DNA of 64,000 bases, taken from positions 856,030 to 920,029 of the forward strand of contig CAVPWG010000005.1 in NCBI GenBank assembly GCA_963709425.1, in the 5' to 3' direction. The translations under genes were made by a program, and so were the position numbers. The notes under the pieces are model-generated. The model made no database searches. It was not told the origin of the DNA and was given only the letters and a program-made list of their open reading frames with translations. This document shows, piece after piece, positions 1 through 6,217 of the stretch. Position 1 is the first letter of the stretch; each line of letters begins with the position of its first letter. The stretch comes from an uncultured Actinomycetes bacterium (GTDB taxonomy: Bacteria; Actinomycetota; Thermoleophilia; Gaiellales; JAICJC01).

Positions 1-192
1 GTCCCCGGAGGCCACGCGTACCTTGCACTTGCGGCATGTCCCGTGACCGCCGCACGTCGAGTCGATCGCGATGCCGTTCCACGACGCCGCGTCGAACACC
101 GTCGTCCCGGCCGGGACGCGCACCTCGCCGCCCTCGGGGCGGAAGCTGAGGCGGACGCGGCCCGTCCCCGACTCGACGGTGGCGTCGGTCAC
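1..192 (-). CDS. Corrinoid reductive-activation protein (RACo/COG3894-like), N-terminal [2Fe-2S] ferredoxin domain; 5' part only, gene runs off the left edge
   Basis: Too short for the ORF track. My translation of the minus strand from GTG 192-190 is VTDATVESGTGRVRLSFRPEGGEVRVPAGTTVFDAASWNGIAIDSTCGGHGTCRKCKVRVASGD. It carries a ferredoxin-type CGGxGxCxxC motif. GTGA overlap with the stop (189-191) of the upstream methyltransferase. Confidence 0.6.
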   Translation of the reverse strand, partial: MTDATVESGTGRVRLSFRPEGGEVRVPAGTTVFDAASWNGIAIDSTCGGHGTCRKCKVRVASGD

Positions 193-1046
193 CGCTGCGC
201 CGCCGCCTGCTTCGCGCGATGCGCCGCGATCCAGCGCCCGCCCCACTCGTCGTGGCCCAGCAGGAAGTCGGCGGCGCGGACTCCCTCGACGCAGACCGGC
301 GAGCGGGCATCCATGATCGCGCTCGTGAGCCCGTGGCTCGCCGCGATCGCCAGGAAGCCTGCGCCCAGGACGTGGCGGCCGGGCAGGCCGAACGAGGTGT
401 TCGACGCGCCGCACGTGGTGTTCACGCCCAGGTCCTCGCGGAGCAGGCGGAGCGTCTCGATGAAGAGCGTGACGGCCCGCGGCTCGGCGCCGACGGGCAT
501 CGCGAGCGGATCGATCACAACATCCTCGGGGGGGATGCCGTGGTCGCCGGCGACCGACACGATCTTGCGCGCCACCTCGAGCCGGCGCTCGGGGTCCATC
601 GGGATCTCGTCGTCGTTCGCAAGGCCGATCACCGCGGCGCCGTGGCGCGCGACCAGCGGCAGGATCGCCTCGAGCCGCTCATCCTCCCCCGTCACCGAGT
701 TGACGAGCGCCTTGCCGTCGTAGGCGTCGAGACCGGCCTCGAGCGCCTCGATCACCGACGAGTCGATGACGAGCGGAAGGTCGGTCAGGTCCTGCACCCG
801 CGCCACCCCGGCGCGCATCAGCTCCACCTCGTCGGCCAGCGGGTCGCCGACGTTCACGTCGAGCATGTCCGCGCCGCCGGCGACCTGCTCGGCGACGTCG
901 TCGTCGAGCTGCGAGAGGTCGCCGGCCTGGAGCTGCGCCTGGAGCGCCTTCCGCCCGGTCGGGTTGATCCGCTCGCCGATCACGCAGAACGGCCGTCCTG
1001 CACCGATCGTGACGGTCCTAGACCGCGACTGGAGAACCGTGTCCAT
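189..1046 (-). CDS. Methyltetrahydrofolate:corrinoid methyltransferase (pterin-binding domain protein, MtgA/AcsE/MetH-pterin-module-like)
   Basis: ORF 189..1172(-). Pterin-binding-type sequence (VIGERINPTGRK, DMLDVNVG, ALVNSVTGE, TCGASNTSFGLP). Start trimmed to ATG 1046 (MDTVLQSRSRTVTIG) because the 42 upstream codons are Arg/Ser/Pro-rich junk. Confidence 0.85.
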   Translation of the reverse strand: MDTVLQSRSRTVTIGAGRPFCVIGERINPTGRKALQAQLQAGDLSQLDDDVAEQVAGGADMLDVNVGDPLADEVELMRAGVARVQDLTDLPLVIDSSVIEALEAGLDAYDGKALVNSVTGEDERLEAILPLVARHGAAVIGLANDDEIPMDPERRLEVARKIVSVAGDHGIPPEDVVIDPLAMPVGAEPRAVTLFIETLRLLREDLGVNTTCGASNTSFGLPGRHVLGAGFLAIAASHGLTSAIMDARSPVCVEGVRAADFLLGHDEWGGRWIAAHRAKQAAAQR

Positions 1047-1175
1047 GCTCAACCCTTTCGGCGTACGTCGGGATGCCAAGGCGACGGCTCGCATTGGCGA
1101 TGCCGGCGTCCTTCCTGGAGCTGATGAAGTGGAGCGGTCGCTTGACGGCCGCCTCGACGCCAGCGACCACACTCA

Positions 1176-1841
1176 TCAGACCGCCGCCGGCTCCCGCCGA
1201 TGCTCGATCAGCTCCTTGGCGAGCCGCACCGCCGTCGAGGCGTCGGCCGCGTATCCGTCGGCGCCGACCGCGTCGGCGTACTCCTTGGTGACGGGGGCGC
1301 CGCCGACCATCACGATGACCTTGTCGCGCAGCCCGGCCTTCTCGAGCGCGTTGATGTTCGCCTTGAACATCGGCATCGTGGTCGTCAGGAAGGCCGAGAA
1401 GCCGACGATGTCGGGCTCGTGCTCCTGGATCTGCTCGACGAACTTCTCGGGCGCGACGTTCACGCCGAGGTCGAACACGGTGAAGCCGGCGCCCTCGAGC
1501 ATGATGTTCACGAGGTTCTTGCCGATGTCGTGGACGTCGCCCTTGACCGTGCCCATGACGAACGTGCCGATGGGCTTGGCCCCGGTCTCGGCAAGGAGCG
1601 GGCGCAGGATGTCGAGCGCGCCCTGCATGGCGCGTGCGGCGATCAGCATCTCCGGGACGAAGAAGTCGCCACGCTCGAACCGCGCGCCCACCTCCTCGAG
1701 CGAGGGGATGAGGGCGTCGTAGAGCAACGACTCGGGCTCCATGCCCTCGGCCAGTCCGAGCTCGGTGAGCTCCTTCACCGATGGCGCGTTCCCGACCAGC
1801 GTGTCGTCGTACAACCCCTGAAGGATCTCGTCGTGCGTCAT
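1176..1841 (-). CDS. Corrinoid (cobalamin-binding) methyl-carrier protein, MtgC/MttC-like
   Basis: 221 aa. Helical cap plus Rossmann B12-binding domain with a DxHxxG motif (GDVHDIGKN) and MVGGAPV. ATGA overlap with the IclR stop (1838-1841). Confidence 0.9.
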   Translation of the reverse strand: MTHDEILQGLYDDTLVGNAPSVKELTELGLAEGMEPESLLYDALIPSLEEVGARFERGDFFVPEMLIAARAMQGALDILRPLLAETGAKPIGTFVMGTVKGDVHDIGKNLVNIMLEGAGFTVFDLGVNVAPEKFVEQIQEHEPDIVGFSAFLTTTMPMFKANINALEKAGLRDKVIVMVGGAPVTKEYADAVGADGYAADASTAVRLAKELIEHRREPAAV

Positions 1842-4084: not shown

Positions 4085-5251
4085 ATGCGACTCGCGGGGC
4101 ACTACGAGCGGCTGGGCACAGAGCGCGCCTTCGAGGTCCTCGCGCGGGCCAGGGCGCTCGAGGCACAGGGCCGGAACATCGTCCACCTCGAGATCGGCGA
4201 GCCCGACTTCGACACACCTCCGCACGTGGTCGAGGCCGGGGTGCGCGCGCTGCGCGAGGGCCACACCCACTATTGCCCCGCACCGGGGCTGCCCGAGCTT
4301 CGCGATGCCGCGGCCGAGCACCTCACGCGGACGCGCGGCGTCGCCGTCGATCCCGCGCGGGTGCTTGTCGCACCCGGGGCGAAGTGGTTCCTCTTCTTCG
4401 GCGTCCTCGCGGTCGCGGGCGAAGGCGACGAGGTGATCTACCCGAACCCCGGCTACCCGATCTACGAGTCGGCGATCAACTGGTCGGGCGCCACGGCGGT
4501 GCCGCTCCCGATCACCGAGGAGACGGGGTTCGCCTTCACCGCCGACGATCTCGCGGAGCGGCTCACGCCGCGGACGCGGATGGTCATCCTGAACTCGCCG
4601 GCGAATCCGACCGGCGGGGCGCTCGACCGCGAGCTGAACCTCCAGATCGCCCGCATCCTGGCCAATCACGACTGCTGGATCCTGACCGACGAGGTCTATT
4701 CGGAGCTCCTGTACGAGGGCGCGCACGACTCGATCGCCGCGCACGGCCTGCTCGACCGCACGATCCTGCTCGACGGCTTCTCCAAGACGTACGCGATGAC
4801 CGGGTGGCGGCTGGGGTACGCGGCGGTGCCGCCCGACCTGATCGAGCCGCTCTCGCGCTTTCTCATCAACTCGGTCGCGTGCACAGCGCCCGCCGTGCAG
4901 CTCGCCGGCGTCGCAGCGCTGACCGGGCCGCACGACGCGATCGACGCGATGGTCGCGGAGTTCGTGCGGCGGCGCGAGGTGTTGGTCGACGGGCTGAACC
5001 GGCTTCCGGGCGTCTCGTGCGTGATGCCGCGGGGCGCCTTCTACGCCTTCCCGAACGTGACCGCAACGGGCATCGACGAGCGCACGCTCGCATCGCGGCT
5101 GCTCGACGAGGCCGGCGTGGCCGTGCTCGCCGGGACGGATTTCGGCGCCCATGGCGCGGGCCACATCCGGCTCTCGTACGCCAACTCGCTGGAGCACCTG
5201 CACGAGGCGCTGGGCCAGATGGGCGGCCTGCTCGAGGCCGTCGCGGTCTAG
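4085..5251 (+). CDS. Class I/II PLP-dependent aminotransferase (aspartate aminotransferase-like)
   Basis: 388 aa. Contains NSPANPTG and the PLP-lysine block SKTYAMTGWRLGY. Lies 18 nt downstream of the MttB-family gene. Confidence 0.9.
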   Translation: MRLAGHYERLGTERAFEVLARARALEAQGRNIVHLEIGEPDFDTPPHVVEAGVRALREGHTHYCPAPGLPELRDAAAEHLTRTRGVAVDPARVLVAPGAKWFLFFGVLAVAGEGDEVIYPNPGYPIYESAINWSGATAVPLPITEETGFAFTADDLAERLTPRTRMVILNSPANPTGGALDRELNLQIARILANHDCWILTDEVYSELLYEGAHDSIAAHGLLDRTILLDGFSKTYAMTGWRLGYAAVPPDLIEPLSRFLINSVACTAPAVQLAGVAALTGPHDAIDAMVAEFVRRREVLVDGLNRLPGVSCVMPRGAFYAFPNVTATGIDERTLASRLLDEAGVAVLAGTDFGAHGAGHIRLSYANSLEHLHEALGQMGGLLEAVAV

Positions 5252-5254
5252 CCG

Positions 5255-6217
5255 GTGGCGGCGTCGATCGTCGTCACGAGGCGGATCCCCGAGCCGGCGA
5301 TCGAGCTCCTCCACTCGGCCGGAGACGTCTGGCTCTCGCCTCACGACCGGCCGCTTGCGGCCGGCGAGCTGCACGAGGCGGTGGCCGGCGCCGACGGCGT
5401 GGTGACGCTGCTCCACGACCGGGTTGACGACGCGTTCCTGGATGCCGCCGGCGCGGGCCTCCGCGTCGTCGCGAACGCCGCGGTGGGCTACGACAACATC
5501 GACGTGCCGGCGTGTGCCCGGCGGGGCGTCGTCGTGACGAACACGCCGGGCGTCCTGACCGAGGCCACGGCCGACCTCGCGTTCGCGCTCATCCTGATGG
5601 CGACCCGGCGACTGGGCGAGGGCGAGCGGCTCATCCGGGCCCAGACCCCATGGTCGTGGAGCATGTTCTTCATGCTCGGAACGGGGATCCAGGGCAAGAC
5701 GCTCGGCATCGTCGGGCTCGGGAAGATCGGCCAGGCGACCGCGCGCCGGGCGCGCGCATTCGGGATGCAGATCGCCTACTCGGGACGACGGCGCGCTGCG
5801 GCCGAGGTCGAGGCGGAGCTCGAGGCGCGCTTCGTCACGCTCGAGGAGCTGCTGGGGAGCGCCGACGTCGTCTCGCTCCATTGTCCCCTCAGCGCCGAGA
5901 CGCACCATCTGATCGATGCGGCCGCGCTGGCCGGGATGAGGCCGTCGGCGTTCCTCGTCAACACGACCCGGGGGCCGGTCGTCGACGAGGCGGCGCTCGC
6001 CGCGGCCCTGCGTTCCGGCGCGATCTCGGGGGCGGGGCTCGACGTCTTCGAGCGCGAGCCAGACGTGCATCCCGACCTGCTCGGCCTCGAGAACGCCGTC
6101 CTCATCCCCCACCTCGGGTCGGCGACCGTCGAGACCCGGACGGCGATGGGCGTGCTCGCGGCGCGGAATGTCGTCGCGGTTCTCGGCGGCGATCCGGCCG
6201 TTACGCCCGTGGCCTGA
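5255..6217 (+). CDS. D-isomer-specific 2-hydroxyacid dehydrogenase (glyoxylate/hydroxypyruvate reductase-like)
   Basis: 320 aa. NAD-binding GIVGLGKIGQATARRA, plus NTTRGPVVDE, DVFEREP and PHLGSAT. GTG start 3 nt after the aminotransferase stop. Confidence 0.9.
   Translation: MAASIVVTRRIPEPAIELLHSAGDVWLSPHDRPLAAGELHEAVAGADGVVTLLHDRVDDAFLDAAGAGLRVVANAAVGYDNIDVPACARRGVVVTNTPGVLTEATADLAFALILMATRRLGEGERLIRAQTPWSWSMFFMLGTGIQGKTLGIVGLGKIGQATARRARAFGMQIAYSGRRRAAAEVEAELEARFVTLEELLGSADVVSLHCPLSAETHHLIDAAALAGMRPSAFLVNTTRGPVVDEAALAAALRSGAISGAGLDVFEREPDVHPDLLGLENAVLIPHLGSATVETRTAMGVLAARNVVAVLGGDPAVTPVA

Follow-up and report, generated by a model that had tools for sequence, protein, structure and literature searches.

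A probable glycine betaine-demethylating, MtgBCDE-type methyl-transfer locus in a soil Gaiellales genome

The DNA considered here, a stretch of 64,000 nucleotides with a G+C content of about 70% (the window, across whose whole length all positions are numbered), stems from an uncultured actinobacterium of the Gaiellales and carries at its left end a divergent gene cluster around a methyltransferase of the MttB family. Which compound does this enzyme demethylate, where does the methyl group go, and what is the role of the aminotransferase and 2-hydroxyacid dehydrogenase genes behind it? Our answer, which we consider probable, is that the locus encodes a cobalamin-dependent methyl-transfer system of the MtgBCDE type found in aerobic bacteria, and that it demethylates glycine betaine. 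Judged by its sequence, the core is a known kind of system in a new phylum and habitat, and a modest variant of it. Its own features are an IclR regulator with a candidate operator, an aminotransferase/GRHPR-like tail in some Gaiellales, and a strain-specific loss of metV-metF.

If correct, this would add soil Actinomycetota (Gaiellales, Solirubrobacterales), which are abundant and for the most part uncultured, to the marine Proteobacteria from which aerobic B12-dependent glycine betaine demethylation is known. It would imply a B12-dependent soil sink for a major plant and microbial osmolyte, by a route intertwined with methionine synthesis, and the cluster genes could serve as markers for betaine turnover in soil metagenomes. 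Of marine mtgC reads, 5% have already been assigned to Actinomycetota (Mausz 2025, PMC12478193); a literature search for MttB or MtgB in Gaiellales or Thermoleophilia found nothing.

The MttB homologue and its binding pocket

Genes were called from a listing of open reading frames (ORFs) together with Pfam and NCBIfam profile scans, and these place every gene that an earlier note on this DNA had listed at the coordinates used here. The central gene (2627-4066, plus strand) encodes 479 amino acids (aa), of which residues 3-478 match positions 25-500 of the 500-position profile PF06253 with 626.8 bits. As the earlier note had seen, it is one uninterrupted ORF of 479 codons without an in-frame UAG, and internal stops were found in 0 of 81 orthologues. 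The pyrrolysine-containing trimethylamine methyltransferase MttB of Methanosarcina (7xcl) belongs to the same Pfam family, but an assignment of the window protein to the pyrrolysine members was rejected, because it lacks the UAG codon, scores only 122 bits against 7xcl and reaches 268.7 bits with TIGR02369, under the cut-off of 525. Among sequences in the PDB, the closest is 4yyc (438 bits), which is 100% identical to a Sinorhizobium meliloti protein. It is followed by MtgB of Desulfitobacterium hafniense (2qne/9yce; 404 bits, aligned end to end), which together with MtgC and MtgA carries out anaerobic methyl transfer from glycine betaine to tetrahydrofolate (THF) (PMC13080624). Identity amounts to 44.7% with the S. 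meliloti MtgB and to 41.6% with the biochemically characterised D. hafniense enzyme.

In D. hafniense MtgB, glycine betaine is bound by Y97, R312, H348 and F356 (PMC13080624). Three of these four residues are kept in the window protein, namely Y98, which corresponds to Y97, and the carboxylate-binding residues R312 and H348. MttB-family members of other specificity retain R312 and often H348 as well, but a tyrosine at position 97 is absent from them (PMC13080624). At position 352, where the D. hafniense protein has isoleucine, the window protein has tryptophan, and this occurs together with a glycine at 356 in a pattern (W352/G356) that is also present in S. meliloti 4yyc. Y98, R312, H348, W352 and G356 are invariant across all 81 Thermoleophilia orthologues. 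It is plausible that Trp352 stands in for F356 in an aromatic swap; the two positions would face the same side if this segment is helical. We regard the protein as a probable glycine betaine:corrinoid methyltransferase (MtgB), and since tail-bearing and tail-less loci share an identical pocket, glycine betaine is most likely the substrate in all of them. Since identity to a characterised MtgB is only 41.6%, the sequence by itself does not settle the substrate, and the genomic context carries most weight.

A second MttB paralogue (483 aa, 42% identical, with glycine at the Tyr98 position) was seen in two of the related loci (L082, 13697-17241; L010, 15639-17090). It adjoins a 697-aa Oxidored_FMN/Pyr_redox flavoprotein, and in L082 a Fer4/CCG protein and ETF-alpha lie upstream; this set of flavoprotein, Fer4/CCG protein and ETF resembles DgcAB/EtfAB. 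The paralogue may serve another methylated-amine substrate or the demethylation of dimethylglycine.

Gene context and the proposed methyl flow

Divergent from mttB runs a minus-strand operon whose leading gene encodes the IclR-family regulator (1838-2563; PF09339 and PF01614). Its stop codon is overlapped (ATGA) by the start of the gene for an MtgC-like corrinoid protein (1176-1841; 221 aa), which consists of a B12-binding cap and a B12-binding domain (PF02607 and PF02310) and carries the DxHxxG motif as GDVHDIG. This protein is 46% identical to the cobalamin-binding protein of S. meliloti, and its best NCBIfam match is MtgC_2 at 213 bits, against a cut-off of 370; the other MtgC model gives 172 bits against 310. 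Next comes an MtgD-like pterin-binding methyl-THF:corrinoid methyltransferase (189-1046; 285 aa), which matches PF00809 with 87.5 bits and PRK07535 with 298.7 bits, above the cut-off of 259. The GTG start (190-192) of a RamA/RACo-type reductive activase overlaps the mtgD stop (GTGA). Of this activase, the window holds the N-terminus (1-192, minus strand), whose 64 translated residues form a [2Fe-2S] ferredoxin domain containing STCGGHGTCRKCKV, and the remainder lies past the window edge. It is full-length, with Fer2, RACo_linker, Raco_middle and RACo_C_ter domains, in locus L083 and in L001, a second contig with an identical MttB. In L001 a DUF1638 gene then follows, and from this contig and from relatives we know that the DUF1638 gene of the present locus lies left of the window edge. 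The earlier note had thus rightly recognised the regulator, corrinoid protein, pterin-binding enzyme and activase N-terminus with their overlaps, and a complete corrinoid methyl-transfer module around a non-pyrrolysine MttB homologue, though the locus turns out to be larger than it had noted.

What it had not listed are the DUF1638 gene, a remnant of MTHFR and two genes beyond the tail. One of these encodes an MtgE-like homocysteine S-methyltransferase (7040-7948, minus strand; 302 aa; PF02574, 230.5 bits) with a Cys...Cys-Cys zinc motif and 44% identity to bmt of S. meliloti. It lies about 3 kb from mttB and is convergent with the plus-strand genes, an orientation also found in several other Gaiellales loci, where mtgE lies 14-450 nt downstream of mttB. 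Its start is overlapped by the stop of a gene for a 95-aa protein of the PF13769 ('Virulence_fact') family (7945-8232, minus strand; 63.7 bits), and this translational coupling is found in Gaiellales. The PF13769 protein is 43% identical to the 'virulence factor' of the S. meliloti Mtg cluster, where the gene adjoins MetV-MetF-MtgD. Across Actinomycetota, Chloroflexota and Alphaproteobacteria, family members (for instance L087, 7093-7395; L091, 8001-8321; L092, 8001-8288) are found linked to MtgE (PF02574), RamA or DUF1638; the order in a Caldilineaceae operon is RACo-PF13769-PF02574-DUF1638. The protein goes unmentioned in Price 2018 (PMC5764234) and Mausz 2025 (PMC12478193), and a literature search for 'PF13769' found no paper with that term.

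A genome scan yielded 80 species-representative loci from Gaiellales, Solirubrobacterales and Thermoleophilaceae with an MttB 78-96% identical to that of the window, and the homologues come from metagenome-assembled genomes of Gaiellales and other Thermoleophilia. Synteny was mapped by tblastn, with the loci that had enough flanking sequence as denominators. IclR, MtgC, MtgD, RACo and DUF1638 stand in the same arrangement with MttB in 63-64 of 64 loci (IclR in all 64, MtgD in 63), and MTHFR is present in 46 of the 64. MtgE and the PF13769 protein were found within 6 kb in 21 and 20 of 66 loci, respectively. Orthologous loci also carry a dimethylglycine-oxidase-like protein of 808-861 aa (DAO+FAO_M+GCV_T) directly after DUF1638, MetV/MetF, PurU with a score above its cut-off, a GMC oxidoreductase that matches choline dehydrogenase best, an aldehyde dehydrogenase and a choline-kinase-like gene. 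In addition, they contain a class-III-like zinc alcohol dehydrogenase, which adjoins DUF1638, and a GFA-family gene (L083, 2870-3991 and 18562-18948; L082, 2741-4296), which suggests that formaldehyde handling is tied to the cluster. The earlier note had called the substrate unknown; with orthologues of 78-96% identity and identical pockets beside choline-dehydrogenase-like, dimethylglycine-oxidase-like, PurU and MetF genes, this is too pessimistic.

The same parts are known from aerobic bacteria. A split methionine synthase has been defined genetically in Phaeobacter inhibens (Price 2018, PMC5764234), and the MtgBCDE glycine betaine demethylase/methionine synthase, with RamA and DUF1638, has been characterised genetically in Ruegeria pomeroyi (Mausz 2025, PMC12478193). 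A mark of this kind of system is that methionine prototrophy and betaine catabolism both depend on mtgC and mtgD. Characterised systems are therefore not confined to anaerobic Firmicutes, as the earlier note had it. Like these systems, the locus has PF06253, PF02607+PF02310, PF00809 and PF02574 proteins, a RamA-like activase (Fer2 and DUF4445/RACo) and DUF1638, and its relatives share MetV/MetF and PurU with them. The S. meliloti cluster around 4yyc comprises a cobalamin-binding protein, DUF1638, a 'formyl transferase', the PF13769 'virulence factor', MetV, MetF, a methyl-THF cobalamin methyltransferase, an ASKHA/RamA protein, bmt and a betaine ABC transporter. MtgB, MtgC, MtgE and the PF13769 protein of the window share 43-46% identity with their counterparts there, and the W352/G356 pattern and the PF13769 neighbour are shared. 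Unlike the alphaproteobacterial MtgBCDE systems, the present one belongs to the Actinomycetota, in a soil member of the Thermoleophilia; it has the divergent IclR gene with a conserved palindrome, its metV-metF is deleted in the source strain, and some Gaiellales add the AspAT-like and GRHPR-like tail. With the anaerobic Mtg system of D. hafniense it has in common a non-pyrrolysine MttB with the equivalents of Y97, R312 and H348, a DxHxxG corrinoid protein, a pterin-binding partner and RamA-type activation. It differs from that system in the replacement of F356 by glycine and the Trp at 352, in a corrinoid protein under both MtgC cut-offs, and in its linkage to a homocysteine methyltransferase and DUF1638.

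On this homology, MttB/MtgB would demethylate glycine betaine once, to dimethylglycine, and place the methyl group on the Co(I) corrinoid protein MtgC. MtgD would hand the methyl group to THF or, in reverse, load MtgC from methyl-THF, and MtgE would pass it from methyl-MtgC to homocysteine, giving methionine. RACo/RamA and DUF1638 would restore, by re-reduction, corrinoid inactivated by oxidation. Beyond these roles, it is a rather doubtful but testable suggestion that the MtgBCDE scheme should be enlarged by two additions, the PF13769 protein as a phylum-spanning subunit or chaperone of MtgE and the corrinoid-reactivation machinery, and an AGXT/GRHPR-like pair wired into the betaine operons of some Gaiellales. 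Neither the PF13769 partner nor the tail would be conceptually surprising.

Regulation of both operons is probably in the hands of the IclR protein. The 63-nt divergent intergenic region contains a palindrome (2582-2599; ATGAAAC-ACTC-GTTCCAC) that in orthologous Gaiellales loci has the form GTGGAAC-N4-GTTCCAC (7-4-7). It sits just downstream of a sigma-70-like promoter match (TTGACG-18-TAAGAT; 2608-2637, minus strand) that is directed into the IclR operon; this match, by consensus only, is the sole promoter-like site in 1-9000, where 0.3 are expected by chance. We infer that the palindrome is a candidate IclR operator, and the arrangement fits IclR control. No cobalamin riboswitch or other RNA family was matched in 1-12000 (Rfam, gathering thresholds).

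Between mtgC and mtgD, blastn against L002, a 96%-identical relative, revealed a clean gap of 1,145 bp that takes out metV (PF12225) and metF (PF02219). With the MTHFR of L083 as tblastn query, the match was limited to residues 281-318, i.e., the final 38 aa of metF, at 1021-1134 (minus strand; deletion junction at about 1133). The same deletion structure is present in L001. The linked metF2, an accessory and not a core feature of MtgBCDE, is thus represented in the window by this remnant.

The aminotransferase-dehydrogenase tail

Behind mttB, on the same strand, follow a class I (AspAT-like) aminotransferase dependent on pyridoxal phosphate (PLP) (4085-5251; PF00155, 213 bits) and a GRHPR-like D-2-hydroxyacid dehydrogenase (5255-6217; PF02826 and PF00389), separated by gaps of 18 and 3 nt. 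A terminator scan found none between the three genes, and its lone terminator-like match, inside the aminotransferase ORF, is within chance expectation. This agrees with the earlier note, and the three genes are probably co-transcribed. Its remark that the pair is not part of the known betaine systems is supported too, as neither Price 2018 nor Mausz 2025 mentions it. Among 72 loci with sufficient sequence downstream of MttB, 14 have the tail there, and these fall into two Gaiellales groups, with the aminotransferase 86-96% identical in the window's own group and 70-75% in the second. In 13 of these 14 loci the three genes lie 0-135 nt apart, and L078 has a gap of 990 nt; three more cases were found with the aminotransferase as query. 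Because mtgE is only 14-450 nt from mttB in other Gaiellales, the pair looks like an insertion between the two.

The solved structures nearest to the aminotransferase are archaeal and bacterial aspartate/aromatic aminotransferases (258-278 bits), and none of its best equivalog matches (282-297 bits) reaches its cut-off (415-624). End-to-end alignments of the dehydrogenase were obtained with archaeal glyoxylate reductases (265-279 bits) and with 2h1s/2gcg (226 bits), deposited as glyoxylate reductase/hydroxypyruvate reductase, which we take to be human GRHPR. Its Arg (TTRG), Glu (FEREP) and His-x-x-Ser (PHLGS) motifs align with those of glyoxylate/hydroxypyruvate reductases, and PRK13243 gives 327 bits against a cut-off of 455.

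Comparable pairs are AGXT and GRHPR or, in the serine cycle, sga-hprA (serine-glyoxylate aminotransferase and hydroxypyruvate reductase); a pair of this kind would link glycine or serine to glycolate or glycerate. The window pair is alike in that an aminotransferase adjoins a dehydrogenase of the glyoxylate/hydroxypyruvate reductase family, but its aminotransferase is of class I, not class V. We tentatively suggest that the tail handles the C2/C3 amino-acid end-products of betaine breakdown, converting serine via hydroxypyruvate to D-glycerate, or glycine to glyoxylate and on to glycolate, or both. Such an AGXT/GRHPR-like or serine-cycle-like branch, probably co-transcribed with MttB, would lead glycine or serine derived from betaine directly to glycolate or glycerate. 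It would also echo the induction of serine-cycle proteins on glycine betaine in R. pomeroyi (PMC12478193). The earlier note had seen in the tail a hint at an amino-acid-derived substrate or product; a product, glycine or serine, is still plausible given that the tail is retained, but the substrate is most likely glycine betaine.

Several homologues of the aminotransferase were seen in other settings. In L089 (3484-7324), a homologue with 74% identity lies between alanine racemase and a malate synthase whose gene was called as two parts (PF20656/PF01274, then PF20659), a context that hints at a family able to act in glyoxylate/alanine metabolism. In another homologue (P0210, 512 aa) the aminotransferase is fused to GFA. 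A PLP aminotransferase is also encoded in the Mtg cluster of S. meliloti, 2.4 kb downstream of MtgB (L087, 15821-16963), but with only 26% identity its orthology to the window's enzyme was rejected.

Alternative readings and neighbouring genes

A number of observations weigh against a glycine betaine-demethylating MtgBCDE system. In the pocket, the cation-pi aromatic pair Y97/F356 is incomplete, Y98 being kept and position 356 being glycine, and in D. hafniense MtgB the substitution F356L raises the Km about 800-fold (PMC13080624). The compensation by Trp352 is our inference, none of the assayed MttB proteins has a W352/G356 pocket, and the low identity to the characterised MtgB is about the same as that to the plainly different paralogue in L082. 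The operon metV-metF is missing from the source strain, a transposase-like ORF cuts mtgE off from the cluster, and no dimethylglycine-oxidase-like gene was found in the window by tblastn. When MTHFR, dimethylglycine-oxidase-like, GMC, aldehyde dehydrogenase and PurU queries were run against the window, only the MTHFR remnant and the GFA gene matched. One could argue from the pocket, from the specificities that share R312 and often H348, and from a tail undescribed in known betaine systems that MttB acts on another betaine, a quaternary amine or a methylated amino-acid derivative, whose released amino acid the tail then processes. We regard this as improbable, since the pocket residues do not vary between tail-bearing and tail-less orthologues, the tail-less ones stand in choline, betaine and dimethylglycine catabolic contexts, Tyr98 is kept although other specificities lack it, and the MtgB of the published S. 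meliloti MtgBCDE cluster shares W352/G356. The methyl groups might also be used differently. The main job in the source strain could be methionine synthesis by a split MetH made of MtgC, MtgD, MtgE, RamA, DUF1638 and the PF13769 protein, with betaine methyls passing via MttB and MtgC straight to homocysteine and little flux to THF oxidation. The linkage of MtgE and the PF13769 protein to the cluster in Gaiellales, the deletion of metV-metF, which would oxidise methyl-THF, and the Caldilineaceae operon, in which the 8 kb covered to each side contain no MttB, all speak for such a use. Most relatives, however, retain MetF and dimethylglycine-oxidase-like genes, which point to catabolic flux, and growth on betaine does not induce MtgE in R. 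pomeroyi (PMC12478193). We consider it rather unlikely as the main job, and it is in any case compatible with glycine betaine demethylation rather than exclusive of it.

For the tail, the question is whether the two enzymes are general housekeeping proteins that by chance lie downstream of MttB in some Gaiellales. The tail is missing from 58 of the 72 relatives, both proteins fall under every equivalog cut-off, and a specialised MttB-linked aminotransferase clade was rejected, as a neighbour-joining tree places stand-alone homologues of 73-75% identity in the midst of the linked copies; in three of six examined contexts of such homologues the gene stands alone. Against chance stand the order, strand and near-zero gaps of the three genes, which two diverged Gaiellales groups have retained (aminotransferase 70-96%, MttB 78-96% identical), the lack of a terminator between them, and a reductase family that suits the C2/C3 products of betaine breakdown. 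A mere chance neighbourhood is thus somewhat unlikely. The possibility of an ordinary glycine betaine system, which the earlier note had set against its own proposal, is largely borne out by the three identical pocket residues of four and by the absence of the tail from most relatives; the tail is nevertheless real and retained in two groups.

Around the cluster, 20 more ORFs located at 9-47 kb were scanned with Pfam, and nothing clearly related to a betaine pathway emerged. A GFA-family gene (glutathione-dependent formaldehyde-activating enzyme; 9066-9473, plus strand) neighbours the cluster. The REP-associated tyrosine transposase-like ORF (6201-6809, minus strand; PF01797, 28.9 bits; REP_Tyr_transpos, 66 bits against a cut-off of 80) shares 17 nt with the 3' end of the dehydrogenase gene. 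Of the eight closest loci, L007 lacks it and the remaining seven have it at 43-72% identity, the flanking genes being 78-96% identical; it is probably a neighbour and not part of the methyl-transfer system. Directly upstream of the PF13769-mtgE pair lies a gene for an S-adenosylmethionine-dependent methyltransferase (8244-8984, minus strand; PF08241), which is kept at the same position in the window's clade with 84-93% identity.

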